From NCBI GenBank assembly GCA_050010635.1, contig JBEKKR010000004.1, positions 70,272 through 134,271 on the forward strand: a stretch of 64,000 nt of DNA, in the 5' to 3' direction. A program made the position numbers and the translations under genes. Positions 3,811-44,648 of this stretch are shown one piece after another; the first letter of the stretch is position 1; every line of letters starts with the position of its first letter. This DNA is from Candidatus Limnocylindrales bacterium. GTDB lineage: Bacteria > Chloroflexota > Limnocylindria > Limnocylindrales > CSP1-4. Under the pieces are notes generated by a model. That model had not been told where the DNA came from. It saw nothing but the letters and a program-made list of their open reading frames with translations, and did no database searches.

Positions 3811-4179
3811 ATGTTGCGCCCCGCCGACGGCATCTACGGCCTCCAGGCCTCACTCCTCAAGACACTTGCCAGCCCGCGCCGGCTCGAGATCGTCCACTAC
3901 CTGGGTGAGTCCGGCCCGGTCGAGGTGCGGAAGCTCGCCGAGCATTTCGGCTCGACTCAGCCGGCGATCTCGCAGCACCTTGCCGCCCTGCGGGGAGTGG
4001 GCATCGTCGAGGCCGTTCGAGACGGTCGTGAAGTCCGGTACCAACTGGCCGATCCGGAGATCGTCGCGGCGTGCGGCGCGATGCGCCAGGTCCTGATTCG
4101 GCGCATTGCCCGTCTCGGCGACATCGCCGCGTCGTATTCCAACCCTCAACCGGCCGACTCCGTCCCGGTCAACCGGTAG
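3811..4179 (+). CDS. ArsR/SmtB family transcriptional regulator (sHdrR/SoxR-like)
   Basis: wHTH signature LKTLASPRRLEIVHYLGESGPVEVRKLAEHFGSTQPAISQHLAALRGVGIVE. About 60% identical paralog at 16892-17278. Confidence 0.85.
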   Translation: MLRPADGIYGLQASLLKTLASPRRLEIVHYLGESGPVEVRKLAEHFGSTQPAISQHLAALRGVGIVEAVRDGREVRYQLADPEIVAACGAMRQVLIRRIARLGDIAASYSNPQPADSVPVNR

Positions 4180-4222: not shown

Positions 4223-4588
4223 GTGGCCGAGAAGCTCATGTTCATGCTCACCCACGGGCCGAACCATCCCGAACACGTGACGATCCCGTTCGTCATGGCA
4301 GTTGCCGCTCTTGCCTCGGACGTCGAGGCCGTCATCGGACTCCAGGCCGACGGCGTCGAGATCGCCGTCAAGGGCCGCGCCGAATCGGTCGCTGCCGAAG
4401 GCTTCCCTCCCCTCTCCAAGCTCATGAACGACTACAAAGAACTCGGCGGGAAGATCCTCATCTGCGGCCCGTGCGTCAAGTCACGCCAGATCGACGCCGC
4501 CACCCAGCTCGTCGAGAACGCCGAGGTCGTCGCGGCGGCCCGGTTTGTGGTCGAACTGACTTCCGCCACAAACGCCCTGAGTTACTAA
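4223..4588 (+). CDS. DsrE/DsrF-like sulfur relay family protein
   Basis: GTG start 8 nt after AAGGAG. MFMLTHGPNHPE..ILICGPCVKSR resembles the DsrE/YchN fold. It sits immediately 5' of tusA. Confidence 0.75.
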   Translation: MAEKLMFMLTHGPNHPEHVTIPFVMAVAALASDVEAVIGLQADGVEIAVKGRAESVAAEGFPPLSKLMNDYKELGGKILICGPCVKSRQIDAATQLVENAEVVAAARFVVELTSATNALSY

Positions 4589-4612: not shown

Positions 4613-4876
4613 ATGAGCGCCTTGGACGTAGCAGAACTCGGAAACCTCACCGCCGCCGAAGTCATCGACGCCCGCGGCGCTGCCTGCCCCGGCCCGCTCC
4701 TCGAGGCCAAGAAGGGCATGGGCAAGGTCGCCATCGGCGACGTCATTGAAGTCTGGTCCAGCGACCCGGTCACCAAGACCGACATGGGCGCCTGGGCCGG
4801 CAAGGTCGGGCATGAGTTCCTCGGCGTCATCGAGGCAGACGGATACGACCGCGTCTTCCTTCGCCGCGGCAAGTAG
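4613..4876 (+). CDS. tusA: TusA-like sulfur carrier protein
   Basis: 87 aa with the invariant CPxP motif (ARGAACPGPLLEAKKGM) and typical two-layer alpha/beta size. Confidence 0.85.
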   Translation: MSALDVAELGNLTAAEVIDARGAACPGPLLEAKKGMGKVAIGDVIEVWSSDPVTKTDMGAWAGKVGHEFLGVIEADGYDRVFLRRGK

Positions 4877-4966: not shown

Positions 4967-5407
4967 ATGACTGCGCTCGCGGCACCTGTTGATGAGAAGA
5001 CGGGCACAGCCGCCCCGCGAATCCTGGTCTTCTCCACCAACAACATCTCCGATCCCGGCATCGACCTAGCCGGGAGCGCCCACCTCCACTACTCACCCGG
5101 TGTGCGTGTCATCAGCATGCCGTGCACCAGCGGCATCCGCCCTTCATGGATCCTCCACGCCATCAAGCAGGGTTTCGAAGGTGTCTTCATTGCCTCCGAC
5201 GGGGACGAGTGTGCCTACCTGCCCGACTGCGCCAAGCGCGCGTCGCGGATCATCGCCGAGGCTCAGGCGCTGCTCAAGGCGGAGGGTCTCGCGCCGCAGC
5301 GCATCAAGATGGCCGCCATCTGCTCGGTCTGCGCGGAGAACTTCGCCAAGCACATGAACCAGTTCTCGGAGGCGCTGATCGCGCTCCGATCGGCTGGAGC
5401 CAACTGA
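4967..5407 (+). CDS. MvhD/FlpD-like iron-sulfur protein (methyl-viologen-reducing hydrogenase delta subunit family)
   Basis: 146 aa. RILVFSTNNISDPGIDLAG..MPCTSGI..FIASDGDECAYLPDC..CSVC matches the MvhD Cys pattern. Its stop overlaps the hdrA1 start (ATGA). Confidence 0.8.
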   Translation: MTALAAPVDEKTGTAAPRILVFSTNNISDPGIDLAGSAHLHYSPGVRVISMPCTSGIRPSWILHAIKQGFEGVFIASDGDECAYLPDCAKRASRIIAEAQALLKAEGLAPQRIKMAAICSVCAENFAKHMNQFSEALIALRSAGAN

Positions 5408-8133
5408 TGACCAGCTACGACGCCCTTGTCGTCGGCAGCGGCATCGCCGGCATGGAATCCGCGCTCAAGCTGGGCGACATGGGCTACAAGATCCTGCTCG
5501 TCGAGAAGGAGGCGAGCGTCGGCGGCCGGATGATCCTGCTCAGCAAGGTCTTCCCCACCCTCGACTGCGCCAGCTGCATCTCCACGCCGAAGATGGCAGC
5601 CTCGATCCACCACCCCAACGTGACCGCTCTGACGTACACCGAAGTCGACGACATCGCCCGCCAGGAGGGCGGCCGCTTCAAGGCCACCATCCGTCGGAAG
5701 CCGCGCTTCGTCGACGAGGCCGCCTGCACCGGATGCCAGCTATGCGAGACGGCCTGTACAGTCGCCGTCCCGGACCAGTTCAACGCCGACATGGTCGCCC
5801 GCCGGGCCGCCTACATCACGTTCCCGCAGGCCGTACCGAAGAAGGCCGTCCTCGAGCGGGCCGGCACTTCGCCCTGCACCTACACGTGTCCTGCGGGCAT
5901 CAAGGCCCACGGCTACGTCTCCCTCATTCGCAGCGGGGAATACGAGAAGGCCTTCCAGCTCGTCCTGGATGCGACGCCGCTAGTTGGGACCCTCGGCCGA
6001 GCCTGCTACGCCCCGTGCGAGGGCGAGTGCACCCGCGGCTCCCTCGAAGGCACGCTGCCGATACGGCGACTCAAGCGCTTCGCCGCCGACCAGCACTACG
6101 CCTCCGCCGATGGGCCCAATGTCGAAATTCCGCCCGCCAACGGCAGGAGGGTGGCCGTTGTCGGCTCCGGACCGGCCGGCCTGACCGCCGCCTGGCAGCT
6201 CGCCCGGCGTGGCTACGGCGTGAAGATCTTCGAAGCCGCTCCGGTTGCCGGCGGCTTCCTCAGGCTCGCCATCCCGGCCTACCGCCTCCCGGCCGAGGTC
6301 GTGGATCAGGACATCTCCAACGTGACCGCCATCGGCGTGGAAATCGCCACGAATTCGCCGGTCACGGACCTAGACGCGCTGCGGCGAGACGGCTACGACG
6401 CCGTCCTGGTCGCCACCGGAACGCCGCTTTCCACCGCGCTCAACGTCCCCGGTGAGAACCTTGATGGCGTCCTCGGCGGTCTGAAGTTCCTCCGCACCGC
6501 CAAGCTCGGCGCCCCGACGGACCTGACCGGCAAGAAGGTCGTGGTCGTGGGCGGCGGCAACGTCGCCATGGACGCGGCCCGCAGCGCCGTCCGGCTCGGC
6601 GCCGCCGAGACCACCGTCGCCTATCGCCGCGGTCGAGAAGAGATGCCGGCCCATAAGGCCGAAGTCGACGAAGCCGAACAAGATGGCGTCAGGTTCTCGT
6701 TGCAGGTAGCTCCCGTCGAGGTCGTCGGTGATGCCGCCGGCCAAGTCACCGGGCTGCGCTGCCAGCGCATGGCCCTGGGCAAGCCCGACGCCTCCGGGCG
6801 CCGCCGCCCGGAGCCGATCAGGGGCAGCGAATTCGTGATCGCCTGCGACACGGTCCTCGTGGCCATCGGCATGGCTCCCGAAGGTTCGGCCTTTGGGAGC
6901 GGCATCGCCGCCAACGCGAACGGCACGCTCGTCGCCGACAAGAACACGCTCCAGACGGCCGTCCCGCACGTATTCGCCGCCGGCGACGTGACCACGGGCG
7001 CGTCGGACATTACCCAAGCGGTCGGCCAGGGCCGCCGGGCCGCCCACATGATCGACCGATATCTGCAGGGCGAGCCGCTCACCGGGTTCGAGATGGACGG
7101 CCTCCTGCCGCTCGTCGACAAGCCGGCCGTCCTGGCCCGCCAGAAAAACTACGTCAACCACTCGCCGGCGATCGCCGCCGAACCTGCACCCGGCGGCGTT
7201 GCCGGCCTCGCCAAGCCGGACTTCGCGGAGGTGGAGGCCCCCCTGACCGAAGAGGAGGCGCGCGCCTCCGCCGGCGATTGCCTGGACTGCGGCGTCTGCT
7301 CGGAGTGCCAGGAGTGCGTCACGGTCTGTCCATCGGATGCCATCCACCTGGACATGCGCGAGCAGATCGAAGAGATCGACGTCGGCGCTGTGGTGGTCGC
7401 AACCGGCTACAAGCTGTTCACGGCCGACGCCAAGCCTGAGTACGGCTTCGGCCGCTACAAGAACGTCATCACCGGCATGCAGATGGACCGCCTGCTCGCG
7501 CCGACCAGGCCGTTCAACACGGTCCTGCGCCCGGGCGACGGCAAGGTTCCCGAGCGAATCGCTTACGTCATGTGCACGGGCTCTCGCGACGAGACCGTCG
7601 ACAACCCGCTCTGCTCGCGCTTCTGCTGCATGTACTCGATCAAGCAGAACCAGCTCGTCATGGGCGCGCTGCCGCTGGCCGAGGTCACCGTCCACTACAT
7701 GGACATCCGAGCCCCGGGCAAGCGCTACGACGAGTTCTACGAGGGCGCCAAAGCGATGGGCGCCACGTACGTCAAGGGCCGCGTCGCGAAGATCACCGAG
7801 AAGCCCGACGGCAACCTGGTCCTGCGCTACGAGGACATCGAGCACGGCGGGGCGCTCGTCGAGGCCGAGTACGACATGGTCGTGCTGGCAGTCGGCGTCC
7901 AGCCGAATCGAGACGTCGAACGCCTCTTCTCAGGCGACACGATCGAACTCAACGATTACCACTACGTGGCCGAACCGAGCGAGGACATGAACCCGGGGAC
8001 GACGAGCATACCCGGCGTCTTCGTGGCCGGAACCGCGTCCGGCGCAAAGGACATCACCGACTCGATCCTGCATGCCGGCGCCGCAGCGGCCCAAGCCGCA
8101 GCCCACCTGGAGTCAGTGAAGGTGCCGGCATGA
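5407..8133 (+). CDS. HdrA-like FAD/FeS flavoprotein with inserted GltD/NfnB-like NAD(P)H oxidoreductase module
   Basis: 909 aa. Domains in order: N-terminal FAD Rossmann (VVGSGIAGM), a ferredoxin motif CTGCQLCETAC, and an approximately 430-aa pyridine-nucleotide-disulfide-oxidoreductase module. That module has two GxGxxG sites (VAVVGSGPAGL and VVVVGGGNVAMD) and ends in AAGDVTTG, like the glutamate-synthase small subunit. A second Fd motif CLDCGVCSECQECVTVCP follows, then the HdrA signature CTGSRDETVDNPLCSRFCC. Confidence 0.85.
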   Translation: MTSYDALVVGSGIAGMESALKLGDMGYKILLVEKEASVGGRMILLSKVFPTLDCASCISTPKMAASIHHPNVTALTYTEVDDIARQEGGRFKATIRRKPRFVDEAACTGCQLCETACTVAVPDQFNADMVARRAAYITFPQAVPKKAVLERAGTSPCTYTCPAGIKAHGYVSLIRSGEYEKAFQLVLDATPLVGTLGRACYAPCEGECTRGSLEGTLPIRRLKRFAADQHYASADGPNVEIPPANGRRVAVVGSGPAGLTAAWQLARRGYGVKIFEAAPVAGGFLRLAIPAYRLPAEVVDQDISNVTAIGVEIATNSPVTDLDALRRDGYDAVLVATGTPLSTALNVPGENLDGVLGGLKFLRTAKLGAPTDLTGKKVVVVGGGNVAMDAARSAVRLGAAETTVAYRRGREEMPAHKAEVDEAEQDGVRFSLQVAPVEVVGDAAGQVTGLRCQRMALGKPDASGRRRPEPIRGSEFVIACDTVLVAIGMAPEGSAFGSGIAANANGTLVADKNTLQTAVPHVFAAGDVTTGASDITQAVGQGRRAAHMIDRYLQGEPLTGFEMDGLLPLVDKPAVLARQKNYVNHSPAIAAEPAPGGVAGLAKPDFAEVEAPLTEEEARASAGDCLDCGVCSECQECVTVCPSDAIHLDMREQIEEIDVGAVVVATGYKLFTADAKPEYGFGRYKNVITGMQMDRLLAPTRPFNTVLRPGDGKVPERIAYVMCTGSRDETVDNPLCSRFCCMYSIKQNQLVMGALPLAEVTVHYMDIRAPGKRYDEFYEGAKAMGATYVKGRVAKITEKPDGNLVLRYEDIEHGGALVEAEYDMVVLAVGVQPNRDVERLFSGDTIELNDYHYVAEPSEDMNPGTTSIPGVFVAGTASGAKDITDSILHAGAAAAQAAAHLESVKVPA

Positions 8134-9878
8134 GCCCCGCCGAAAGCCGCGACCCTCAAGCCCGCCGCATCGGGGTTTATGTCTGCCACTGCGGCGGCAA
8201 CATCTCCGACTACGTCGACGTCCAGGCCGTCGTCGACGCGGTCAAGGACGAGCAGGGCGTCGTGATCGCCAAGCACATGATGTTCGCCTGCTCCGACGCC
8301 GGACAGCAGGAGATGGAAGAGGACATCGCCGCCAACGACCTGGACGGCCTCGTCGTCGCCTCTTGCTCGCCCAAGCTCCACGTCGTCACGTTCCGCGGCG
8401 TCGCGAAGCGCTCGGGCATGAATCCCTACGAGTACAACCAGGCCAACATCCGCGAGCAGTGCTCGTGGACCCACACCGACGATCGCGACGGCGCCACGCA
8501 CAAGGCCATCGGCCTGGTCCGCGGCGTCATCGGCCGGACCCGCCTCACCGAGGCCCTGGAACCGCTCGTCGTCGAGACCACGCAGAAGGCGCTGATCATC
8601 GGCGGCGGCGTGACCGGCCTGCGAGCCGCGATCGGTATGGCGGACATCGGCCTGGGCGTCTTCCTGGTGGAGCGCGAGCCCGAGCTCGGCGGCTGGGTCG
8701 GCAAGTTCGGCCCGATGTTCCCACACGAGCGAGACGGCCGCGAGCTGATCGCCCGGATGGTCTCCGAGATCAAGAAGCGACCATCGATCAAGGTCTTCAC
8801 CGGGGCCGAGGTCGTAACCAAGGCCGGCAGCTTCGGTAACTACGAGATCGGCATCCGCGTTGCCGCCGACCCGCCGCAGACCCTCTCTGTGGAGGTCGGC
8901 TCGATCGTCGTCGCTACCGGCTTCGACGCCTACCAGCCGGCCGAAGGCGAGCTCGGGGCCGGCTTGCCGGGCGTACTGACGCTGCCCGAGTTCAAGGATC
9001 TGGTCGACGGCTCGAAGGGTCCGCTCCGCTACAACGGCCGGCCCGTTCGCAGCCTCGCGTACATCTACTGCGTGGGCAGCCGCCAGCCGGACGGCAACGA
9101 GTACTGCTCGCGCTTCTGCTGCTCCGCCACGGCTCACGTCTCGATCAAGGTCTCGGAGCGGGACCCGAAGGTTCGCCAGTACCACCTCTATCGCGACATC
9201 CGGACGTACGGCAACTTCGAGCTTCTGTACACGGAAGCCCGCAAGCAGGGCGCGATCTACGTCAAGTTCCCGGACGACGCCCCTCCCGTCGTAGCCGTCG
9301 AGGCGGGTGGCGGCCTGGCGGTGACCGTCCGCGACCTGCTCTCCGGCGACGAAGAGCTGGAGATACCGGTGGACCTGGTGGTCCAGGTCACCGGCATGAT
9401 CGCCCGTAAGAACGACGAGATGGTCGGGATGCTGAAGCTACCGCTCGGCCGCGATGGCTTCTTCAACGAGATCCACCCCAAGCTGCGGCCGGTCGAAACG
9501 ATGGTCGACGGGGTCCTGATCGCCGGCGCTTGCCAGGGGCCCAAGAGCTCGGCCGAGAGCGTGGCCTCGGGCCTGGCCGCGGTCACCCAGAGCGCGTCCG
9601 TGCTCAAGAAGGGCGTGGCGGAGCTGGATCCGCTCGTCGCCACGGTCGACCCGGACAGGTGCACCTGGTGCGGCAAATGCGAGACCGCCTGCCCCTACGG
9701 AGCGATCGAGAAGCTGTCGCTCAACGGTCGCGAGGTCGCGACGATCAGCGAGGCCGGCTGCAAAGGCTGCGGCGGCTGCGTCCCAATGTGCCCCGAAAAC
9801 GCCATCGACCTGCGCGGCTACACGGACGCCCAGATCACGGCAATGATCGACGGCCTGCTCGAGGAGGCGATCGCATGA
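8130..9878 (+). CDS. HdrA/QmoB-like FAD/FeS flavoprotein with C-terminal 2x[4Fe-4S] ferredoxin domain
   Basis: 583 aa. Cys-rich N-domain (VYVCHCGGNISDYVD), FAD site ALIIGGGVTGL, HdrA signature CVGSRQPDGNEYCSRFCC, and C-terminal CTWCGKCETACP / CKGCGGCVPMCP. ATGA overlap with hdrA1. Confidence 0.85.
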   Translation: MSPAESRDPQARRIGVYVCHCGGNISDYVDVQAVVDAVKDEQGVVIAKHMMFACSDAGQQEMEEDIAANDLDGLVVASCSPKLHVVTFRGVAKRSGMNPYEYNQANIREQCSWTHTDDRDGATHKAIGLVRGVIGRTRLTEALEPLVVETTQKALIIGGGVTGLRAAIGMADIGLGVFLVEREPELGGWVGKFGPMFPHERDGRELIARMVSEIKKRPSIKVFTGAEVVTKAGSFGNYEIGIRVAADPPQTLSVEVGSIVVATGFDAYQPAEGELGAGLPGVLTLPEFKDLVDGSKGPLRYNGRPVRSLAYIYCVGSRQPDGNEYCSRFCCSATAHVSIKVSERDPKVRQYHLYRDIRTYGNFELLYTEARKQGAIYVKFPDDAPPVVAVEAGGGLAVTVRDLLSGDEELEIPVDLVVQVTGMIARKNDEMVGMLKLPLGRDGFFNEIHPKLRPVETMVDGVLIAGACQGPKSSAESVASGLAAVTQSASVLKKGVAELDPLVATVDPDRCTWCGKCETACPYGAIEKLSLNGREVATISEAGCKGCGGCVPMCPENAIDLRGYTDAQITAMIDGLLEEAIA

Positions 9879-10138
9879 ACGCTCCCAACGTCGCGCCCGA
9901 CAGGGACCTGCGCGAGATCATCCGCGAGGAGCCGCTCATGAGAAGCCGGATCCTCGAGGTTCTCGCCGACGGTCCGCACACCGTGCCGGAGATCGCCGAG
10001 GCCCTCGGCCGCCCGACTCATGAAGCCATGTACTGGGTCATGGGCATGCGCCGGTACGGCTGGGTCCGTGAGCTCAAGGATGTGACGCCCGAGGGCTACT
10101 TCCGCTACGGGGCCGTCCAGAAGGAGACGCGGTCATGA
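9875..10138 (+). CDS. small winged-helix-like protein, translationally coupled inside the hdr/qmo-like operon
   Basis: 87 aa. GAGGAGG RBS, and ATGA overlaps on both sides. ILEVLADGPHTVPEIAEALGRPTHEAMYWVMGMRRYGWV looks like a wHTH fold. Confidence 0.5.
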   Translation: MNAPNVAPDRDLREIIREEPLMRSRILEVLADGPHTVPEIAEALGRPTHEAMYWVMGMRRYGWVRELKDVTPEGYFRYGAVQKETRS

Positions 10139-11292
10139 CCGCGCGAGTCGATCGCAACCTCTATCCCGAGCTTCAGCGCTTCGGCGCCACGGACATTTCG
10201 GCGTGCTTCAACTGCGGTGTCTGCTCCGCCATCTGCCCGCTTTCAGTGGACGGCGCCTCGTTCCCGCGCCGGATGTCCCGCTACGCCCAGCTCGGTCTTC
10301 GCGAGAAGCTGCTCGCCAGCCCGGAGCTATGGTCTTGCTACGGCTGCTCCGAATGCACGGACTCGTGCCCGACCAAGGCCGATCCGGCCTCGTTCATGGC
10401 CGCCGCACGGCGCTACGCCGTCGCCAGCTATGACCGAACCCACCTCGCCTACCTGCTGGCAACCTCGCGGCTCTTCGCAGGCTTCTTCGTCGTCGCCCTC
10501 GTCGGGCTCCTTGCTGCCTTCATGTATTCGGTCCACAAGCCGGTCGACGGCTCGACGCTCGCCTTCTTCGACTTCGTCCCCAGCGACGTCATCCACAACA
10601 TGGGCATCGTCGCCATGGCGGTCATGGGAGTGGCGGCACTGGTCGGCCTGATAGAGATGGTCAGGCGCGTGTTGCGCGGACCCAAGGCAGTAGCCGCGAA
10701 GACGACGTTCGGCAAGGTGGCCGGGGCCGCCGTCTACGCGGTGGGCACCGAGTCGCTGGCCCAGACGCGCTTCCGAAAGGATTGCGCCGACGGGGCGGCG
10801 TCCGGCGAAGCCGGCGAGGCCCGGCCCTGGTATTCGCAGCGCTGGTTCATCCACTTCGCCACCATGTGGGGGTTCCTGGGCCTGCTCGGCGCCACGATGC
10901 TCGACTACGGCCTGGAACTGCTCGGCGTCAAGGCCGTGGGCACGGCGGTGCCGATCTGGTATCCAGTGCGCCTGCTCGGCACGATCGCCGGCGCCGCGCT
11001 GATCTACGGCACGACCGTGCTGATTGTCCGGCGCCTGCGCAAGAGCGACCGCTCAAGCCTCCACTCGACGACTTCGGACTGGACTTTCCTGGCAATGCTC
11101 TGGGTCACGGGCGTAACGGGCTTCGTCCTGGAACTCGCGCTATACCTGCCGCAGGCCCCCACGTGGGGCTACCCGATGTTCCTGCTCCACGTCGGAGTGG
11201 CCATGGCCCTGGTCCTGCTGGTGCCGTTCGGCAAGTTCGCCCACGTCTTCTACCGGCCGGTTGCGCTCTTCGCCATCAGGCTGCGCGGCTGA
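10135..11292 (+). CDS. QmoC/HdrE-HdrC-like membrane protein: di-[4Fe-4S] ferredoxin domain fused to a multi-helix, probably heme-b, membrane domain
   Basis: N-terminus carries CFNCGVCSAICP and CYGCSECTDSCP (HdrC-type). Five or more TM helices follow, with conserved His (HNMG, HFATMWG, HVGVAM, HVFYRP) as in NarI/HdrE cytochrome b. Confidence 0.8.
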   Translation: MTARVDRNLYPELQRFGATDISACFNCGVCSAICPLSVDGASFPRRMSRYAQLGLREKLLASPELWSCYGCSECTDSCPTKADPASFMAAARRYAVASYDRTHLAYLLATSRLFAGFFVVALVGLLAAFMYSVHKPVDGSTLAFFDFVPSDVIHNMGIVAMAVMGVAALVGLIEMVRRVLRGPKAVAAKTTFGKVAGAAVYAVGTESLAQTRFRKDCADGAASGEAGEARPWYSQRWFIHFATMWGFLGLLGATMLDYGLELLGVKAVGTAVPIWYPVRLLGTIAGAALIYGTTVLIVRRLRKSDRSSLHSTTSDWTFLAMLWVTGVTGFVLELALYLPQAPTWGYPMFLLHVGVAMALVLLVPFGKFAHVFYRPVALFAIRLRG

Positions 11293-11394: not shown

Positions 11395-11985
11395 ATGAGT
11401 TCCAAGAAACGCCACGGCGCAGCCGGCCGTCGCTCCACGGGTGGGACCGTCGTTGCCTCCAGCCCATCGAGGCCGGCGCTCTTTGCCGATGGGCAAGCTC
11501 GACTCGTTCTGCTCGTCGCCGTCCTCGTTCTGGCCGCCGCCGTCGTGATCGGCGCCGATCTTATCTTCGGCGCGATATCGAACGGCAGCGGGAGCACCGC
11601 AGCAACCGCTACGCCGGCCGCCACCTCGAGCCAGATCGGTGTCGTCGTCCAGGGCAGAGGGGGCCACTGGACCAACGTAACGCCGGATCAGCTGGCTCAG
11701 ATGATGGCCCGCAAGGACTTCACCCTGGTCAACGTCAAGACGCCGTACATCGGCGAGATCGACGGCACGGACCTCTACATCCCCTACGACCAGCTCACGG
11801 CGCGTGCCTCGGCGCTGCCCTCGAACAAGGGCGCCCGGATCCTCGTCTACTGCCGGAGCGGCGCGGAGAGCGCTCAGGCCGCCCAGACGCTGCTGGACCT
11901 GGGATATACCAACGTCTGGAACCTGGATGGCGGGATGAACGCCTGGCAGGCGTCCGGCCGCCCGATCGTCACCAGGAACCGGTAG
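11395..11985 (+). CDS. rhodanese-domain sulfurtransferase with N-terminal membrane anchor or signal
   Basis: TM helix LVLLVAVLVLAAAVVIG, then a rhodanese domain with active-site loop CRSGAES and C-terminal LDGGMNAW. Confidence 0.8.
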   Translation: MSSKKRHGAAGRRSTGGTVVASSPSRPALFADGQARLVLLVAVLVLAAAVVIGADLIFGAISNGSGSTAATATPAATSSQIGVVVQGRGGHWTNVTPDQLAQMMARKDFTLVNVKTPYIGEIDGTDLYIPYDQLTARASALPSNKGARILVYCRSGAESAQAAQTLLDLGYTNVWNLDGGMNAWQASGRPIVTRNR

Positions 11986-14163: not shown

Positions 14164-14280
14164 AGATGCTCCGATTCGGCCACTGCTGGGGATGAAGATC
14201 TACGCCACCGATTATCGTTGATGAGCCGATTTCCTGGCGCAGCGGATCGGCCCTTGGGATACATTACCGGCACTTGCGTT

Positions 14281-14290
14281 ATTGCGCAAT
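14281..14290. promoter_or_regulatory. 10-bp perfect palindrome ATTGCGCAAT upstream of tauE
   Basis: Seen in the divergent intergenic region about 40 bp upstream of the TauE/SafE start codon. Confidence 0.25.
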
Positions 14291-14330
14291 TTGGCATGTG
14301 CGAGGCCTTTATGCCGCCCTTCGGGTTCCG

Positions 14331-15173
14331 ATGACACCGGGCGCCGACATCGCGATCTTCGCGATCAGCGCCGCCGCGGGGCTGATCGGCGCCCTGGCGG
14401 GCGTCGGCGGTGGGATCCTGGTCATCCCTACGCTGACATTCGGTTTCGGCGTGGACATCCACCTGGCCGTCGGGGCGAGCATCGTATCGGTCATCGCCAC
14501 GAGCTCCGGAGCAGCCGCAGCCTACGTTCGGGACCGCATGACGGACATGCGGGTCGGCAAGTTTCTCGAACTGGCGACGACAACCGGAGCCGTCTGCGGC
14601 GCGCTCCTGGCGGCCGTCGTGGCGCCGGCTTTCCTGTACTTGCTGCTGGGTGTCGTCCTTCTCGGCACGGCGGCGATACAGGTCGCGCGCATGGGCGAGG
14701 AGAGCCCGCCAAACGACACGCCGTCGCCGCTGGCCGCCCGCCTGCGGCTTGAGTCGTCGTACCCAGACCGGCGTCTGGGCCGCGAAATCCCCTACTCGGC
14801 GCGCCGCATCCCCCTCGGGTTCGTGCTCATGTGGATCGCGGGCGTGGTGTCCGGGTTGCTCGGGATAGGCTCAGGCGTGCTGAAGGTGCTAGCGATGGAC
14901 GGCGTGATGCGGCTTCCGATGAAGGTCAGCTCCGCCACGAGCAACTTCATGATCGGGGTCACCGCGGCCGCCTCGGCCGGCATATACCTGGGCCGCGGCG
15001 ACGTGGACCCGAGGATCGCCGCGCCGGTGGCGCTGGGCGTCCTCACCGGGGCAATCGTCGGAGCCCGCCTCCTCGGCCGGGTCTCCAACCGCGCGGTCAG
15101 GCTGATCTTCCTGCCCGTTGTCATTGCCGTAGGGCTCGAGACGATCGGCCGCGGTTTGGGGTTCGGGCTATGA
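14331..15173 (+). CDS. TauE/SafE (TSUP, DUF81) family sulfite/organosulfonate exporter
   Basis: Two DUF81 repeats with Gly-rich helices (GVGGGILVIP, GIGSGVLKVL), 7-8 TM segments. Internal ATG at 14331 chosen. Confidence 0.8.
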   Translation: MTPGADIAIFAISAAAGLIGALAGVGGGILVIPTLTFGFGVDIHLAVGASIVSVIATSSGAAAAYVRDRMTDMRVGKFLELATTTGAVCGALLAAVVAPAFLYLLLGVVLLGTAAIQVARMGEESPPNDTPSPLAARLRLESSYPDRRLGREIPYSARRIPLGFVLMWIAGVVSGLLGIGSGVLKVLAMDGVMRLPMKVSSATSNFMIGVTAAASAGIYLGRGDVDPRIAAPVALGVLTGAIVGARLLGRVSNRAVRLIFLPVVIAVGLETIGRGLGFGL

Positions 15174-15529
15174 AACCGGAACGGTTCAGGAGGGTGATCA
15201 GCGCGGTGCTGATCGTCGGCGTCGGCATCAGCGCAGCCCTGATTGCGATCGGCTTCGTGGCTGCCCTAGCGATCGGCTGGCAGGGATCGCTCGTCGGCGC
15301 CGGCCCCTTCGCCGCCGCGACAACCGACTTCTCCAACCTTCCGGCTCGTCTGGCATCGCTGGAACCGGCCGCTATCGTCCAGCTCGGCCTCCTCACCTTG
15401 CTGGCCACGCCGGTCGCGAGGGTCGCGGCCTCGGTCGTCGGTTTCACCCTCGAGGGCGACCGCCTCTACGCGGCCATCACGCTGGCGGTTCTGCTGATCC
15501 TTCTGACCAGCATCTTCGTCTTGCGCTAA
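15170..15529 (+). CDS. DUF1634 family membrane protein (usual TauE partner)
   Basis: 120 aa with 3 TM helices. ATGA overlap with the tauE stop. DUF1634 commonly follows TSUP exporters. Confidence 0.65.
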   Translation: MKPERFRRVISAVLIVGVGISAALIAIGFVAALAIGWQGSLVGAGPFAAATTDFSNLPARLASLEPAAIVQLGLLTLLATPVARVAASVVGFTLEGDRLYAAITLAVLLILLTSIFVLR

Positions 15530-15642
15530 GGCGCCAACGGCACGCGACCCCGGGGTGTCCTCGTGAAGACGCTCCGGGGTCGCCGTGACGGGGGTCCGGT
15601 GATTGTCCGGCGCAGGCCGACGGTGGTTGGCAGGCCGCGAAC

Positions 15643-16140
15643 CTAGATGAACATCGTGGAGTCGGCCTCGGTCGCCAGCTGCAGCATCGTCGCCGCGCCG
15701 ACCGTCTCCTCGAGGCCGTCGATGAGATCCTCGCGCCTGATGCCGAACAAGTCCGAGGTCATCTGGCACGGGTAGATCCTGACCCCGAGTTCCTGGCACA
15801 TCGCGAGCAGCTCCTTGGGCTTGGAGGCCTTGTACTTGTCGGCCAGCTGGAACATCATCCACGGCCCCATGCCCATGAAGTTCATCTTGCTCGTCTTGCG
15901 ATGGCTGATGCCCGGCCGCTGCATGAAGGACAGCATCTTCTGCATCCAGTTCTGGCCGGTGATGCGCTTGCCGTCCTTCACAAAGGCCTGCAAGGCCCAG
16001 AAGGTCACGAAGATCGAGGTCTCTATCTCCATCGCGGCGGCGGCGGAGGCGATGATCAACGATGCCCACGTCTTCTCCAGGTCGCCGCTGTAGGCGATGA
16101 TGCAGAGCTTCTTGGGCTTGCTGGCAGCCTCTGCGGTCAT
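15643..16140 (-). CDS. DsrE-family protein (COG2210-type, DsrE2/DsrE3-like)
   Basis: 165 aa. KLCIIAYSGDLEKTWASLIIASAAAAME..YPCQMTSD. Confidence 0.7.
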   Translation of the reverse strand: MTAEAASKPKKLCIIAYSGDLEKTWASLIIASAAAAMEIETSIFVTFWALQAFVKDGKRITGQNWMQKMLSFMQRPGISHRKTSKMNFMGMGPWMMFQLADKYKASKPKELLAMCQELGVRIYPCQMTSDLFGIRREDLIDGLEETVGAATMLQLATEADSTMFI

Positions 16141-16191
16141 TTCGGATCCTTTCGTGTTGAGGGCGAACCAGTTGGGCGCTCGCCGGGGTGG

Positions 16192-16419
16192 CTACTTGTG
16201 GCGGAGCACGAAGCGGAACTTGCCGTTGGCGGAGTCCTGCTCCACGAGGGCGTTGCCGGTAGAGGCGGCCCACGCCGCGAAGTCCTTGACCGACCCCGGG
16301 TCCGTAGCCAGGACCTCCATCAGATCGCCTGCCTCGAGAGTCCTCATGCCCAGCGTCGCCTTGAGGATCGGCCCCGGGCAGGAGAGACCGCTGGCGTCCA
16401 CTTTGAGCTTGATATCCAT
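16192..16419 (-). CDS. tusA: TusA-like sulfur carrier protein (second copy)
   Basis: MDIKLKVDASGLSCPGPILKA.. with the CPxP motif. Internal ATG chosen; 76 aa. Confidence 0.8.
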   Translation of the reverse strand: MDIKLKVDASGLSCPGPILKATLGMRTLEAGDLMEVLATDPGSVKDFAAWAASTGNALVEQDSANGKFRFVLRHK

Positions 16420-16468
16420 CTGCTGCCCTTTCGCTGCTGGTTTGGCCGGGTAGGCCGGTTCCTTCCGA

Positions 16469-16882
16469 CTAGATGAAGAGGATCTGGCCCTCACCGGCGT
16501 TGACATAGAAAGCGGCCACTCCCTCTACGCCGTCGACGATGGGGTCGAGGTCCGAATGCTTGAGCCCGAGGAGCTCCATTGAGGCCGAACAGGCCTGGAT
16601 GTCGACCTCGCCCAATTCCTTGGCCATCCGGAGTGTCTCTGTCCAGTGCGCCTGACCTGCTTTCGCGGCCGCGTCGAGGGCGGCCTTGCCGGCCGGACCG
16701 GCCTCGGGCACAAGACCGTGATCGGCCGTGATCCGATCGGCTCGGAAGGACTCAAGGGCCCAATACTGCAGAAGGATCTTGACCGGCCGACCGAGCGCGG
16801 CGGCACCCGCGGTCAGGACCGAGGCAGATTGAAGCTTGTCGTCGGTCCCCGAGAAGAGGACTATCGAGATGGTTTCGTCCAT
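16469..16882 (-). CDS. DsrE-family protein (COG2210-type, DsrE3-like)
   Basis: 137 aa. ISIVLFSGTDDKLQSASVLTAGAAALG..DIQACSASMELLGL. Together with 16192-16419 and 15643-16140 this forms a DsrE-TusA-DsrE triplet. Confidence 0.7.
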   Translation of the reverse strand: MDETISIVLFSGTDDKLQSASVLTAGAAALGRPVKILLQYWALESFRADRITADHGLVPEAGPAGKAALDAAAKAGQAHWTETLRMAKELGEVDIQACSASMELLGLKHSDLDPIVDGVEGVAAFYVNAGEGQILFI

Positions 16883-17446: not shown

Positions 17447-18622
17447 CTAGCAGATGCGGGGCAGCTGCTCCCCGACCAGCATGTCCACGATCCGCTGCGA
17501 GCCGACAATCGTGCGGACGGTGACCATCGACGGGTGGTCCGCCACGACGCGGCCGATCTCGACCGCCTCCGCCCCTTCCGGGAGAACCCGCATCGCCGCC
17601 AGCACGGCCTCGACCGCGGCGGCCGGCACGATCGCGACGAGCTTGCCTTCGTTGGCCACGTGGAGCGGATCCAACCCAAGCATCTCGCAGGCGGCCCGCA
17701 CGGGGCCGGGGATCGGAATCGTCTCCTCGCGCAGGTCCACGCCCACCTGAGATGCCCCGGCGATCTCGTTGAGCGCCGAGGCCAGGCCGCCGCGTGTCGG
17801 GTCGCGGAGGACGTGGACGTCCGGGCAGGCGGCGACGATCGCGGCCACCAGCGCGTTGAGCGGCTGCGTGTCCGAGGCGATCTCGACCTCGAAACCCAGG
17901 CCCTCGCGGACGCTCATGATGGCGATGCCGTGCAGTCCGATCGGGCCGGAGAGGATGACCGCGTCGCCGGGGGCCGCCCGATCGGCGCCGACCGAGACGC
18001 CGGCGGCCACCAGCCCGATGCCCGCGGTGTTGACGAAGAGCCCATCCGCCGCTCCCCGACCGACGACCTTCGTGTCGCCGGTCACGATTCGAACGCCGGC
18101 TCGGGCCGCCGCCCGCGCGACCGACTCGGTGATCTTCCGCAGCTCGTCGATCAGCAGGCCTTCCTCGATGACGTAGGCGAGCGACAGCGCCAGCGGCTGG
18201 GCGCCCATCATGGCCAGGTCGTTGACGGTGCCGAAGACGGCCAGCTCGCCGATGTCGCCGCCGGGGAACTCGAGCGGGCTGACCACGAACGAGTCGGTGG
18301 TGAAGGCGAGCCGCGAACCCGCGACATCCACGACGGCGGCATCGTTCAGCGGCCCCTGGGCCGCACCGCCGGCCGCAGCCAGCGCCGGGCCGATAACCTC
18401 GCGCATGAGCGCCGCGGAGAGCTGCCCGCCGGAGCCGTGGCCCAGGAGGACTCGTGCGCGTTCGGGTATCGAGGCCGGGCAGGCTAGATTGGCCGGGTCC
18501 GGCGCCGCCGAACCAGCCGGGCCGGGCGCGGCCGCCAGCTCGGTCTCGCTCGCCGCGCGCCCGCCCAGGTTCGTCTCGTCCGGGAAGCCGCCGAAGATGT
18601 CGGCCGCCCGCTTCTCCGTCAT
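17447..18622 (-). CDS. hypE: hydrogenase maturation protein HypE (carbamoyl dehydratase)
   Basis: PurM-like fold. N-terminal [15 protein letters not shown] and invariant C-terminal PRIC. About 50-aa N-terminal extension. Confidence 0.85.
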
Positions 18623-19767
18623 CTCGGCGCCTCGCCGAGCGGCCGCGACAACTCGTAGAGCGGGAACGCCGTCGGCGCCGCGAGCCCCCGCCCCGCCGCG
18701 TGATAGGCGGAGCAGACCCCCTCGGCGCTGACCATCGGCGCCCCCAGCGGCTTCTGGGGGTTGCAGAGCACGCCGTAAGCCGTGCAGTCGAGCGGGGTCT
18801 TCGTGCCCTGCAGGATCTGGCCGGCGATGCAGGCCGGGTGCTCCTGGGTGTGGATGTCGCCGACCTCGAACCGCTTCTCGGCGTCGAACTCCTCGAACTC
18901 GGGCCGCAGGTGGTAGCCCGACGCCGGGATGGTGCCGATGCCGCGCCAGGTCCGCTCGCCCACCTCGAAGACGCGGAAGACCGTCTCCTGCGCCTCGCGA
19001 TTACCCTCGCGCTTCACGGCTCGCGCGTACTGGTTCTCGACGACCGCCCGCCCTTCCTCGAGCTGGCGAATCGCCATCAGAATCCCCTCGAGCAGGTCCA
19101 GCGGCTCGAACCCGGTCACCACGATCGGGACGTGGTAGCGCTCCGCGATCGGCTCGTATTCGGTCCAGCCCATGACCGCGCAGACGTGGCCCGCGGCCAG
19201 GAAGGCCTGGACCTGGTTCGTCGGCGACTCCAGGATCGCGGTCATCGCGGGCGGAACCAGGACGTGGCTGACGAGAACGGAGAAGTTCTCGAGCCCGAGC
19301 CGGGCGGCCTGCCGGACCGCCATGGCGTTTGCCGGTGCCGTCGTCTCGAACCCGATCGCGAAGAAGACGACCTGCCGATCCGGGTTCGCGGCCGCAATTC
19401 GGACCGCATCCAAAGGCGAGTACACGATCCTTACGTCAGCGCCGCGCGCCTTCAGCGCCAGCAGATCAGTCGTCGATCCCGGGACGCGGAGCATGTCGCC
19501 GTAGCTGGTGAAGATGACGTCCGGCCGGGCGGCGATCGCAAGCGCCTTGTCGATCTGCTCGAGCGGGGTCACGCACACGGGGCAACCGGGGCCGTGGATC
19601 ATCCGCACGCCCTTCGGCAGCGCCTCGTCGATACCCTGCTTGACGAGTGTGTGGGTCTGCCCGCCGCACACCTCCATCAGCGACCACGGCCGAGTGGTGA
19701 TGCGGTGGATCTCGTCGACCAGCTTGCGGGCGATCTCGGAGTCGCGGTACTCGTCGACGTACTTCAT
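18619..19767 (-). CDS. hypD: hydrogenase maturation protein HypD
   Basis: [17 protein letters not shown] and the C-terminal CxxH motifs of HypD. 382 aa. Confidence 0.9.
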
Positions 19768-20075
19768 ACGCGCGCCCCCGGCGCGGGCGGCGGCCCTGAA
19801 GCGGCAGGCGGCGCGGCCTCGGCCATCGCGCCCAGCTCCATGGCCATGCCTTCCTCGTCGATCATCCGTAGCAGCTCGAGCGTCTTGAGAGCCTCCTCCT
19901 CGTCGAGCTGGCTGATCGCAAAACCGACGTGGACGATGACGTAGTCGCCGATGCCGACCTCCGGCAGGTAGGCCAGGCAGGCTTCCTTGCGCACCCCGCC
20001 GAAGTCGACGCGAGCCATGCGCAGCGCTCCGTCATCGCGGATCTCCACGACCTTGCCCGGGATGCCGAGGCACAT
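19764..20075 (-). CDS. hypC: hydrogenase assembly chaperone HypC/HupF
   Basis: Starts [12 protein letters not shown] (invariant Cys2). About 104 aa with an Ala/Pro-rich tail. Internal ATG chosen. Confidence 0.8.
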
Positions 20076-20080
20076 TCGAA

Positions 20081-22549: not shown

Positions 22550-22753
22550 CCGAATCGAGCCTCCATGAAGCGCACCTCTGAATCCGGGCGGGCACGCAGG
22601 GCCGCTGAAGCCCCGTATATCTCACACCCGGGCGCTGAAGTTTCCGCCTGCCGAGCGGCCCGCCGCCGCGGCCAAAAGGTCCCGACTACGGACCGTCCGG
22701 CCGGGTGGGTCGGGGGGCCGCCTGCACCGGCCGCCGGCCAGGACACCCCGCCA

Positions 22754-23977: not shown

Positions 23978-24374
23978 CAAGGCCCTCTGAGTGCGGTCTC
24001 GCCGTGACTCGGATCCAGGGCCCTTGGTCACTGCCCCACTCCATTTGCAGTATGCCATCAGATCGGCCCATATGGCGGGCGGCCCGCGCCGCCGAGAGTG
24101 CCAATGTCGACGGCGAGCAACGGAATGTGCATGTTCGGGACATCGGGGGCCTCGCGCGCGGCCAGCATCGGGGCCGACCCCTGACTGGCGATCCCGCGGC
24201 GCACCCCTATCGGCCTTGAACCGCATGCCCATCCGGGCGGGTCCGTTCGGCACTTGCCCGATCCGGCTCCCGGCCTGAGGTTAAGGGCAACAAGTCCCGT
24301 GCGCGGGACCGCCGCAGGCCGAGAGGTCTGTGGCTTGTTCTGCGACGGGCTCCGCACCCGAAAGCGAGCAGCGA

Positions 24375-24662
24375 ATGGCGATCAGTCCAGTTGCCATGGC
24401 TCTCCGGCCGCCGGTGCCGTGGACTCCCCTCGTTATCGCCGAGGACCGCTGCAAGGGCTGCGAGCTGTGCGTCGCAGCCTGCCCCAAGCGCGTTCTCGAG
24501 CTGAACCGGAGCCGCATCAACGTGCTCGGCTACCACCCCGTCGAGCTGACCGACGCAGCCGCCTGCACGAGCTGCGCCTTCTGCGCCCGTGTCTGCCCGG
24601 ACACCGTCTTCACCGTCTGGGCCGCCCCGCGCGAGGCCTCGAGAGAGGAGCGGTCGCGATGA
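24375..24662 (+). CDS. 2x[4Fe-4S] ferredoxin, delta subunit of 2-oxoacid:ferredoxin oxidoreductase
   Basis: [12 protein letters not shown] and [12 protein letters not shown]. Stop overlaps the korA start (ATGA). Start uncertain (24330 or 24375). Confidence 0.7.
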
Positions 24663-25899
24663 AATCCGATCGTGAGATAGGCCTCGGCGCACGCCAAACC
24701 GCGGCGGAGCTGGAAGCGAGCCGCCGCTCCCGGGTTCTGATGAAGGGAAACGAGGCGATCGCGGAGGCCGCCGTACAGGCCGGCTGCGATGCCTACTTCG
24801 GCTATCCGATCACGCCGCAGGCCGAGCTCCTCGAGTGGATGGCCCGGCGCATGCTCGAGCTGGGGCGGGTCTTCGTCCAGGCCGAGAGCGAGCTGGGCGC
24901 GATCAACATGGCCCTCGGCGCCGCCGCCACGGGCGCCCGGGTCATGGTTTCGTCGTCGAGCCCGGGCATCAGCCTGATGGCCGAGGCGATGAGTTACATG
25001 GCCGGCTCCGGCACGCCGATGGTGCTCGTCAACATCATGCGGGCCGGCCCCGGCCTGGGCGGCATCGGTCCGTCCCAGAGCGACTACTTCCAGGCCACCA
25101 AGGGCCACGGCCACGGCGACTACCGCGTGCCGGTCCTCGCCCCCGACTCGATCAGCGAGGCTATGGATCTCACGGCAACGGCCTTCGAGCTGGCGGAGCG
25201 CTATCGGACGCCCGTCATGCTCGTCGCCGACGGAATACTCGGCCAGGCGATGGAACCGGTCGAGCTGCGCTTCCGAACGCCAGAAAGGCACACCTTCGAC
25301 TGGGCCCTCACCGGCGCAGCCGGCCGCCCGGCCCGGATCATCAAGTCGATCGACCTCGATCCCGAGGTCCTCGAGGCGCGCAACCAGGCCCTCCAGCACA
25401 AGTACCGCGAGATCGCCCGCCACGAGGTCCGCTGGGAGGGCTGGCAGCTCGAGGATGCCGAGTTCGCCATCGTCGCCTACGGCACGGCGGCCCGCGTCGC
25501 TCGCTCCGCCATTGCCATAGCCCGGGAAAAGGGCATCAAGGTGGGCCTCTTCCGGCCGATCACGCTTTGGCCCTTCCCCGAGCGCGAGCTGGCCCGGCTC
25601 AGCCGGCGCCTCCACGGCATCCTGACCGTCGAGCTCTCGTCCGGCCAGATGGTCGAGGACGTCCGGCTGGCCGTCGAGGGTCGCTGCCCGGTCGCCTTCC
25701 ACGGTCGAATGGGCGGCCTGGTGCCTACCCCGGACGAGGTCCTCGGTGCGCTCAAGGCCCTGCGGGCCCGCACCGAGCGCACGCGATCGGCCGAACACCA
25801 TGCGGCCACGGCGTCGCCGCCATCCCGTCCGCTGGCTACGTACGAATCGTCCGAGATCGCCCCGTGGGTTCACGAACGGGCCCGGCGGGGAGGTCGACG

Positions 25900-25903
<4 letters not shown>
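24659..25903 (+). CDS. korA: 2-oxoacid:ferredoxin oxidoreductase alpha subunit (KorA/PorA/VorA)
   Basis: [34 protein letters not shown] is typical of OFOR alpha. 415 aa. Confidence 0.85.
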
Positions 25904-26733
<830 letters not shown>

Positions 26734-26734
26734 G

Positions 26735-29738: not shown

Positions 29739-29757
29739 CGCTCGCTCAGTCTTCGGT

Positions 29758-32486: not shown

Positions 32487-32767
32487 GCGTATAGGGTGCG
32501 CGCCGAAACCTCTCGCTACGAGCGACAGGGCTCCCTAACACCGGGGGCCATATGGCCCGCGGAGGCACGGGACGGGATAGGTGGCACCTGCCCACAAGAG
32601 TGGGCTCATGGCGGCTTGGAGGGTGGGTCGCGCGGGCGGATTGACCTGTGCGCCGGAGGGCATGCGGCCCCCTCGGCGTCCTCATCCGGGCGGGGGAACA
32701 CTTGCCCGCGGCTGAGGGCCATTCGGCACTGCCGCGGCAGCTGCACCGGCCCGAGACTTCCGCTTGT

Positions 32768-44641: not shown

Positions 44642-44648
44642 GCGCGAG

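Follow-up and report, generated by a model that had tools for sequence, protein, structure and literature searches.

An HdrA interrupted by an NfnB/GltD-type NADPH module in a conserved operon of Limnocylindria (Chloroflexota)

Has an HdrA in a soil and freshwater lineage of Chloroflexota taken up a whole NADPH-binding flavoprotein, and if so, where would the electrons of such a protein go? The question is raised by a 64,000-nucleotide stretch of a Candidatus Limnocylindrales bacterium (GenBank assembly GCA_050010635.1, contig JBEKKR010000004.1, positions 70,272 to 134,271), which we call the window; its G+C content is about 69%. A long open frame (5122-8133; features lie on the forward strand unless stated otherwise) holds a gene with an ATG at 5407, a stop codon at 8131-8133 and a product of 908 amino acids. 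An earlier note, made from the sequence alone, had read this product as an HdrA whose FAD domain is split by a GltD/NfnB-type module, and had seen in it the ingredients of a flavin-based bifurcating or confurcating enzyme.

A ferredoxin domain split by an NADPH-binding module

The gene at 5407-8133 encodes an HdrA with a whole NADPH-binding NfnB/GltD-type module placed between the cysteine motifs of its ferredoxin domain. In this HdrL-type protein, the thioredoxin reductase (TrxR)-like FAD domain of HdrA, with its inserted ferredoxin domain, is interrupted by an NADPH:FAD module of the NfnB/NfnL/GltD type. When residues 128 to about 615 were left out, the remainder of HdrL gave an unbroken alignment at about 50% identity with a solved HdrA (5odc, residues 145-566), a stretch that consists of the TrxR-like FAD domain and the "inserted ferredoxin domain". 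HdrA sequence picks up in frame after the insert. The NCBIfam HdrA models matched the flanks only (for example, residues 625-903 corresponded to positions 284-562 of the HdrA2 model), and the HdrA equivalog score of 452 bits was far under the cutoff of 1100 bits. The Pfam and NCBIfam domain matches and the seamless alignment confirmed the split of the FAD domain that had been claimed earlier, and all the motifs quoted at that time were found in the translated 908-aa product.

The N-terminal HdrA part (residues 1 to about 148; 5407-5850) aligned with 5odc residues 145 to about 270. It carries the GxGxxG motif of the FAD site (G10, G12 and G15, within VVGSGIAGM at residues 8-16), the motif FPTLDCASC, in which C57 is the equivalent of HdrA Cys197, and the first ferredoxin motif (C107/C110/C113/C117, CTGCQLCETAC, residues 107-117), followed by a FPQAVP linker. 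The C-terminal HdrA part (residues 650-908; 7354-8133) comprises the rest of the FAD domain, aligned with 5odc residues of about 313-566, and contains the cluster motif C723/C736/C740/C741 (CTGSRDETVDNPLCSRFCC, residues 723-741), which is of the HdrA type CxGSRD...CSxxCC. HdrL begins at the FAD motif and stops at about HdrA position 566; in the alignment to 5odc, it was without the HdrA N-terminal cluster domain and without the C-terminal 2x[4Fe-4S] ferredoxin domain. Among 63 diverse homologues (35-95% identity), all cofactor Cys and Gly motifs of HdrL were invariant or nearly so, including the cysteines of the N-terminal part, the glycines G10/G12/G15 and the cysteines C723/C736/C740/C741.

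The NfnB/NfnL-like module, as delimited by PDB sequence matches and Foldseek, occupies residues of about 150-556 (5854-7074). Pfam Fer4_20 (GltD/DPD-type) matched residues 154-231 with 62.8 bits, above the cutoff, with only profile positions 29-109 matched, and Pyr_redox_2 matched residues 248-542 (E = 1.8e-45). The GltD-like NCBIfam model PRK12771 spanned residues 128-658 with 481 bits. The best PDB sequence matches were NfnL-like chains of the Bfu type (9bov_A, 381 bits; 9n5u_A, 356; 8oh5_C, which is StnC, 341), followed by NfnB (4ylf_B, 289 bits; 5jca_L, 264), then GltD at about 203 bits, and then DPD. The module has the cluster cysteines C157/C161/C200/C204/C208, the FAD site VAVVGSGPAGL (residues of about 248-258), the NADPH site VVVVGGGNVAMD (residues 377-388; GxGxxA type) followed by YRR...EMPA as in NfnB, and the GD motif AAGDV (residues 524-528). 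In the NfnB family, YRR...EMPA is the site of the NADPH 2'-phosphate.

An AlphaFold2 model built from the 63-sequence alignment had a predicted local distance difference test (pLDDT) score of 92.0 and a predicted template modelling (pTM) score of 0.87. With the 36 close orthologues only, these values were 67.6 and 0.50; the addition of the representatives with 35-52% identity brought the improvement. In Foldseek, the insert fell on NfnB (TMt 0.78-0.80, root-mean-square deviation 2.4 A) and the remainder on HdrA (TMt up to 0.94, with 8rvu_a). Foldseek gave no PDB chain spanning both the HdrA and the NfnB-like parts (TMq ≤0.49), and there was no solved HdrL structure in the PDB copies searched. 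A duplicated HdrA FAD domain, which would have been another source of the insert, was ruled out by the hidden Markov models, the PDB sequence matches and the fold matches of the model to NfnB. Thus, the insert is a GltD/NfnB-type module, as the earlier note had proposed.

The boundaries had to be corrected. The span of about 5800-7090 first assigned to the insert agrees with the end of the NfnB-like fold, at about residue 556 (nucleotide 7074 or so), but not with the return of HdrA, which takes place only at residues of about 620-625 (nucleotides of about 7270-7279). Between them lies a linker of about 65 residues (residues 557-624; 7075-7278), which is also present in the NfnL-like domain of Bfu-type NfnA/StnC. 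It was partly disordered in the model, where residues 590-601 were the sole stretch of the protein with a pLDDT below 50. The linker is followed by a six-cysteine motif, C625-x2-C628-x2-C631-x2-C634-x2-C637-x3-C641-P (CLDCGVCSECQECVTVCP, residues 625-642; 7279-7332), all six cysteines of which were invariant or nearly so. Its last four cysteines are the second motif of the HdrA inserted ferredoxin domain. Both CxxCxxCxxxC motifs of this domain are therefore kept (residues 107-117 and 631-641), with an insert of about 470 aa between them. The two motifs had been noticed before and are indeed present, but they had been thought to bracket the protein; they bracket the insert and are the halves of one inserted ferredoxin domain.

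The first cluster motif of NfnB is CxxCxxxxCxxxCP. The window module begins without its first CxxC: C39 and C42 of NfnB align with L149 and A152 of HdrL. Domains of this kind bind two [4Fe-4S] clusters with seven Cys and a Glu, or with eight Cys. Around the junction, HdrL has 4 + 5 + 6 = 15 cysteines. As 15 is the sum of eight for the ferredoxin domain and seven which, with a Glu, would make up the NfnB-type set, we infer that C625 and C628 stand in for the CxxC missing from the NfnB-like module.

Could the gene be an artefact in which a frameshift or a misassembly joined hdrA to gltD? The earlier note had named this as the finding that would overturn its reading. HdrA resumes in frame after the insert. 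Full-length HdrL proteins of about 900 aa were found in more than 120 protein clusters (90% level), with 73-95% identity over 98-100% of the length. A genome scan revealed the full-length gene in 80 independent species-level genomes, labelled Chloroflexota, Limnocylindrales or "Chloroflexia"; a few others, which are co-assembly bins, bear the label Anaerolineaceae, and one that of Steroidobacteraceae. In a 50%-identity library, dozens of representatives with 35-52% identity were collinear with HdrL over residues of about 5-900; their lengths were about 900, about 1100-1270 and about 1470-1530 aa, and the named members belong to Syntrophaceae/Syntrophobacterales, Dehalogenimonas sp. WBC-2 and Caldisericota. 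An artefact can practically be dismissed.

A complementary HdrA and a coupled operon

The gene downstream of hdrL (8130-9878, overlapping it by 4 nt and present in 74 of the 80 related loci) encodes a second HdrA of 582 aa. It aligned with 5odc residues 4-235 and 313-652, so that the inserted ferredoxin domain is skipped, and the N-terminal cluster domain, the FAD domain and the C-terminal 2x[4Fe-4S] ferredoxin domain are all present. The two terminal domains missing from HdrL are those found on this protein. In turn, it has no equivalents of Cys194/Cys197, with FPHERDGRE in place of the HdrA motif FPTNDCSIC. A Syntrophaceae protein of 1495 aa, P0124, consists of an HdrL part (residues 8-913) fused to an HdrA2-type part (residues 931-1487), and the latter is 38% identical to the window HdrA2 over its whole length. 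An HdrA2-type gene also adjoined every examined HdrL homologue whose contig continues past hdrL. As the two are one fused protein in Syntrophaceae, a heterodimer of HdrL and the second HdrA is most likely, and this fusion, together with the complementarity of the domains, implies that what the window encodes is the "large" HdrL in split form.

Tandem complementary HdrA paralogues of ANME have been proposed as heterodimers (Chadwick et al. 2022, PMC9012536). According to the literature on ANME HdrA, Cys197 of one protomer in the solved enzyme ligates the N-terminal cluster of the other (PMC9012536). By analogy, in an asymmetric heterodimer, the N-terminal cluster of the second HdrA would receive its missing ligand from C57 of HdrL.

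The gene order around hdrL is arsR, dsrE-like, tusA, mvhD, hdrL, second hdrA, hyp, qmoC-like and rhodanese. The five genes from mvhD to qmoC overlap successively by 1-4 nt (the ATG of hdrL shares one base with the TGA of mvhD), and they are a translationally coupled operon that is conserved across Limnocylindria (Chloroflexota) metagenome-assembled genomes (MAGs). Shortfalls in the gene counts across the 80 loci were mostly due to contig ends. The mvhD gene (4967-5407; 79 of 80 loci) encodes an MvhD/FlpD-type [2Fe-2S] subunit with five conserved cysteines (Pfam FlpD, 1e-28). The gene hyp (9875-10138; 74 loci) is coupled on both sides and encodes an 87-aa winged-helix-like protein without Cys, which gave a weak Pfam match to HTH_20. 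Some copies of it are annotated as a MarR regulator at NCBI, and as 'DprA/Smf' at JGI.

The last gene of the operon (10135-11292; 70 loci) encodes a QmoC-like membrane subunit, in which an HdrC-like 2x[4Fe-4S] domain is followed by a NarI/HdrE-like domain of about six transmembrane segments. Residues 9-378 matched positions 5-358 of the 360 positions of the NCBIfam qmoC model (NF038018), with 194 bits against a cutoff of 300. The protein has eight conserved cysteines, four conserved histidines (H154, H240, H352 and H370) and about six hydrophobic helices by hydropathy, a pattern that is predicted to fit two [4Fe-4S] clusters and two haems b. Its N-terminal domain is 41% identical to the HdrC of a sister cluster (L081).

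Sister clusters showed what this subunit replaces. In sisters with 52% identity (candidate division FCPU426 and a MAG), the order is DsrE_2-TusA-MvhD-HdrL-HdrA-hyp-HdrC-HdrB, and in a metagenome contig with 46% identity it is Rhd-TusA-MvhD-HdrL-HdrA-hyp-HdrD. The QmoC-like subunit takes the slot held by HdrCB or HdrD in these clusters. Counterparts of hyp stand at the same position in the HdrCB and HdrD clusters and are 42% and 33% identical to it, respectively; hyp-type proteins lie between hdrA and the HdrC-like gene in L081 (12472-12708), L083 (8286-8570) and L089 (9001-9237). No HdrB or CCG-domain protein was found in the window cluster or in the 80 related loci, where only the HdrC-like domain of QmoC is present.

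Sulfur-carrier genes are co-inherited with the cluster. The gene tusA (4613-4876; 87 aa; Pfam TusA, 1.6e-18) lies immediately 5' of mvhD in 76 of the 80 loci, and its active-site cysteine in the CPGP motif, C25, was 100% conserved in 75 orthologues. Upstream of it, a DsrE-family sulfur-carrier-like protein of 116 aa (4238-4588; Pfam DsrE, 2.7e-12) has a CGPC motif, with C76 and C79 100% conserved in 55 orthologues. A gene for a rhodanese-domain protein (11395-11985; Pfam Rhodanese, 4.8e-13) comes after qmoC in 21 of the 80 loci, those of the closest relatives. The cluster opens with an ArsR/SmtB-family regulator (3811-4179; Pfam HTH_5, 5.7e-13), upstream in 66 of the loci; it has a single Cys, and hence is not of the two-Cys SqrR/BigR persulfide-sensor type. 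Further downstream lies a peripheral sulfur set consisting of a TauE/SafE sulfite exporter (14274-15173), a DsrE_2 protein (15643-16191, reverse strand) and a second TusA (16192-16524, reverse strand). This set (14274-16524) was syntenic only in the closest loci, and related loci then carry another ArsR-family gene. The open frame at 15776-16093, antisense to DsrE_2 and with a G+C content at third codon positions (GC3) of 0.95, is almost certainly no gene but a shadow frame produced by the high G+C content.

Proposed electron flow and its alternatives

The third redox couple that the earlier note had suggested, sulfur or quinone, fits this operon, which has both a QmoC-like subunit and TusA, DsrE and rhodanese. 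We prefer a reading in which the operon encodes an NADPH-linked, quinone-coupled bifurcating or confurcating complex of the Hdr/Qmo type, with a low-potential third partner; our belief in it and our doubt are about equal. MvhD, HdrL, HdrA, hyp and the QmoC-like protein would form a five-subunit, membrane-anchored complex with HdrL as its NADP(H)-binding subunit. NADPH would give a hydride to the NfnL-like FAD. From there, electrons would move one by one, first over the [4Fe-4S] clusters of the module and then over both clusters of the split ferredoxin domain, until they reach an HdrA-type FAD, where the pair would be bifurcated. On the high-potential branch, the electron would run through the FAD-domain cluster, the HdrC-like clusters of QmoC and finally two haems b before it reduces menaquinone. 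On the low-potential branch, the way out would be the C-terminal ferredoxin domain of the partner HdrA and/or MvhD, with ferredoxin or a different low-potential carrier as the acceptor. The complex might also run in reverse, as a confurcating enzyme that makes NADPH. NADPH has a potential of about -320 mV and menaquinone one of about -75 mV, so that the reduction of a carrier at around -500 mV is within reach, as it is for EtfABCX/Fix. The net action would be like that of EtfABCX/FixABCX (NAD(P)H to quinone and ferredoxin), performed with Hdr/Qmo parts.

Bifurcation itself is our inference. In Bfu-type NfnABC, the NfnL-like FAD of NfnA is a non-bifurcating entry for NADPH, from which electrons pass singly through two clusters. 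As the closest solved relative of the insert is such an entry, the two flavins of HdrL do not imply two bifurcation sites. The same enzymes lend some weight to a simpler scheme, a linear NADPH:quinone oxidoreductase (or a quinol:NADP+ reductase driven otherwise), with electrons going from the NfnL-like FAD through the FeS clusters and the QmoC haems to quinone while the HdrA flavins are mere relays or structural remnants. For such a chain, the split ferredoxin domain could touch the HdrC-like domain directly. However, conservation is strict, every cluster ligand included, in the two HdrA-type FAD domains, in the partner's C-terminal ferredoxin domain and in MvhD, and a linear chain would have no need of such machinery. 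Moreover, the methanogen HdrA-type enzymes characterised so far are bifurcating (PMC9012536). We consider a linear enzyme improbable.

Several points weigh against the bifurcating scheme as we have drawn it. In methanogen Hdr, electrons enter at MvhD and leave for ferredoxin by way of the inserted ferredoxin domain (PMC9012536); NADPH wired into this exit branch could mean a logic other than the one proposed. Neither the direction of electron flow nor the identity of the third partner is fixed by the sequence. There is no ferredoxin gene in the cluster, the 194 bits of the QmoC-like protein fall short of the NCBI qmoC cutoff, and in the literature we found no biochemical or structural characterisation of any HdrL. 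Finally, a pure NADPH/quinone/ferredoxin scheme does not explain TusA, in 76 of 80 loci, or the frequent DsrE.

This last point leads to a Qmo-like role in sulfur metabolism, in which the quinone pool (through QmoC) and NADP(H) are linked to a sulfur substrate carried by TusA/DsrE. Examples are the reductive release of sulfide from a persulfide or thiosulfonate, or the oxidation of a carrier thiol or persulfide with NADP+ and quinone as acceptors. The position of tusA directly 5' of the operon, with DsrE, rhodanese and TauE nearby, speaks for it. TusA and hyp also occur in the HdrCB and HdrD sister clusters, which belong to another phylum, and not in the HdrL contexts that contain AFOR or Hdr genes only. 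The layouts hdrA-hyp-hdrC-hdrB and hdrA-hyp-hdrD mirror the published sHdr layouts A-H-C2-B2 and A-H-B3, and canonical Qmo serves a sulfur enzyme (PMC10504309). On the other hand, no catalytic site for sulfur chemistry was found: the annotated neighbourhood showed no CCG/HdrB domain, no AprAB and, within +/-10 kb, no lipoate-binding protein. TusA is kept where a membrane cytochrome replaces HdrB, so it cannot simply be the substrate of HdrB. The ArsR protein, with its one Cys, also does not have the two-Cys pattern of a persulfide sensor. On balance, a sulfur role of this kind seems rather unlikely.

A combination of the two was also considered, namely a TusA-dependent, NADP(H)-linked bifurcating Hdr/Qmo hybrid in which carrier-bound sulfur is the third partner, instead of or besides ferredoxin, and hyp docks TusA. 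We regard this as speculative and doubtful. The small winged-helix-like hyp accompanies TusA, but not HdrL in other contexts, and its position mirrors that of sHdrH in shdr operons. In a profile search with hyp, the best 120 matches listed comprised only its own family (Limnocylindria and FCPU426), with no link to sHdrH.

The linkage of TusA, DsrE and rhodanese, and the small hyp between hdrA and an hdrC-like gene, might also suggest membership in the sulfur-oxidising sHdr system. This was already contradicted by the missing HdrB/CCG protein; no HdrB, sHdrB3 or LbpA was found in the cluster or in the 80 related loci. In addition, the two HdrAs match methanogen HdrA much better (331-393 bits) than they match sHdrA 6tjr (115-145 bits). 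Membership in sHdr thus appears very improbable.

More distant HdrL-HdrA pairs stand beside AFOR/Fer4 (Bam-like) or further Hdr/MvhD genes, without TusA and without a clear hyp homologue. In L085 (3980-14457) and L087 (3881-9364), such pairs lie beside an aldehyde:ferredoxin oxidoreductase (AFOR) of the tungsten type, a Fer4 subunit and ThiS, a layout that recalls class II benzoyl-CoA reductase (Bam) clusters; L085 additionally has an NfnA/PyrK-like gene. The only hyp-like similarity in these contexts was a weak match of 43 aa in L084. There, a 263-aa MvhD (FlpD; 8782-9573) has about 45 C-terminal residues weakly like the hyp of L083 (30%, E = 1.6e-4), and it may be a fusion of two small subunits.

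Known relatives and the rest of the window

The architecture itself is already known, and its implied novelty had been overstated. It was published as "HdrL" for sulfate reducers in 2009 and as HdrA-NfnB for ANME-1 (Chadwick et al. 2022, PMC9012536), and HdrL has been found in Syntrophobacter proteomes and treated in a discussion of Desulfurivibrio. The database search for other HdrA proteins with the insertion, which the earlier note had suggested, gave the Syntrophaceae, Dehalogenimonas and Caldisericota homologues. Our literature searches turned up no account of the TusA-MvhD-HdrL-HdrA-hyp-QmoC cluster, and none of HdrL in Limnocylindria. What is new is the operon context: a split HdrL, a QmoC-like anchor and the linkage to TusA/DsrE.

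HdrL of sulfate reducers is likewise a single polypeptide that unites HdrA with an NAD(P)H-binding GltD-like module, and its gene also has mvhD as a neighbour; the window protein is collinear over residues 6-905 with the Syntrophaceae proteins of about 1500 aa, with all cofactor cysteines kept. In contrast, HdrL and the complementary HdrA are a single chain in the long deltaproteobacterial form and the products of separate, overlapping genes in the window. The partners described for HdrL are HdrABC, Fdh or DsrABC, whereas the partner in this Chloroflexota locus is QmoC-like, together with TusA/DsrE. HdrL of D. autotrophicum was compared by description only. In ANME-1 HdrA9/10/11, compared by description only, an NfnB-like insertion of about 500 aa also breaks the inserted ferredoxin domain, NADPH is the proposed carrier, and the concept of complementary HdrA paralogue heterodimers is the same (PMC9012536). 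These proteins differ in being archaeal, in their context of methane oxidation and in having no QmoC or TusA link.

The window insert shares its FAD and NADPH motifs and a probable two-cluster N-terminal region with Bfu-type NfnA/StnC (9bov, 9n5u and 8oh5) and NfnB (4ylf and 5jca), and with the former also the linker and a 'CxxCG.C' after the fold. Unlike them, it is embedded in HdrA, and not in an Fdh/NuoG-like subunit or paired with NfnA. Canonical NfnAB was rejected because no NfnA-type (FAD_binding_6/NAD_binding_1) gene was present in the cluster; the only one was in the distant L085 context.

QmoABC (Pires 2003) and the 'type II' Qmo resemble the window system: they too combine a pair of HdrA-like flavoproteins with modules of the MvhD and HdrC kinds and with a membrane domain for two haems b, which are predicted for the window protein. 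They differ from it in that the window MvhD is a separate gene, one window HdrA carries an NADPH module, aprBA and sat were not found nearby, and the QmoC-like protein lies below the equivalog cutoff. A canonical Qmo serving AprAB was rejected, since neither aprBA nor sat was found in the annotated part of the window, or among the recognised neighbours in the related loci, which were screened with the window proteins only and with no AprA or Sat query. Type II Qmo systems, which are closer to HdrA and occur with or without Apr/Dsr, have been noted as functionally uncharacterised (Neukirchen 2023, PMC10504309). In Qmo systems, QmoC and HdrBC/HdrD interchange between lineages (Neukirchen 2023, PMC10504309). 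EtfABCX/FixABCX (NADH to quinone and ferredoxin) shares the proposed overall reaction and the thermodynamic logic; the protein families are unrelated, and the likeness is one of analogy only.

HdrA-NfnB/GltD fusions are widespread in anaerobes (Syntrophaceae, Dehalogenimonas, Caldisericota and ANME-1) and are often invoked in metabolic models. The present locus offers a clean, minimal split HdrL with an unambiguous partner HdrA and a membrane quinone module instead of HdrBC, in Limnocylindria, which are abundant in soils, fens and freshwater. Should the complex indeed bifurcate NADPH electrons between quinone and a low-potential acceptor, the task of EtfABCX/Fix would have a second solution, one based on Hdr, and the way in which these organisms produce reduced ferredoxin, or get rid of it, would be explained. 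The TusA/DsrE linkage, which is common to the HdrCB/HdrD sisters in another phylum, points to a sulfur connection outside the current Hdr-like models. If sulfur is the third partner, the operon would be an undescribed respiratory module of soil and peat Chloroflexota that ties sulfur-carrier chemistry to NADPH and the quinone pool, and the HdrCB and HdrD sister forms would be NADPH-linked relatives of the sHdr pathway.

The earlier note had also pointed to 2-oxoacid:ferredoxin oxidoreductase genes nearby. These genes are real, but they lie 16-24 kb from hdrL, outside the 10-kb flanks with which the related loci were covered, and their proximity is a weak argument. One enzyme is multi-subunit (24185-27301, with POR_N/PFOR_II at 24185-25903 and POR gamma at 26687-27301); the other is a two-gene form on the reverse strand (28071-32534, with a fused alpha/gamma subunit at 30150-32534 and a TPP/Fer4 beta subunit at 28071-29762). 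The hydrogenase maturation genes hypE (AIRS/AIRS_C), hypD and hypF are located on the reverse strand at 17447-22621, and the open frames of hypE (17447-19000) and hypD (18619-20031), which differ in reading frame, share about 380 nt. The annotated parts of the window contained no gene recognised as a hydrogenase structural gene. An open frame of 588 aa at 55434-57200 had a coding-like GC3 of 0.85 and no Pfam match. Another flavin-based electron-transfer module in the window is an EtfB/EtfA pair (43562-45719), whose neighbours are aldehyde dehydrogenase, class-III aminotransferase and CoA-transferase genes (39.4-43.5 kb).

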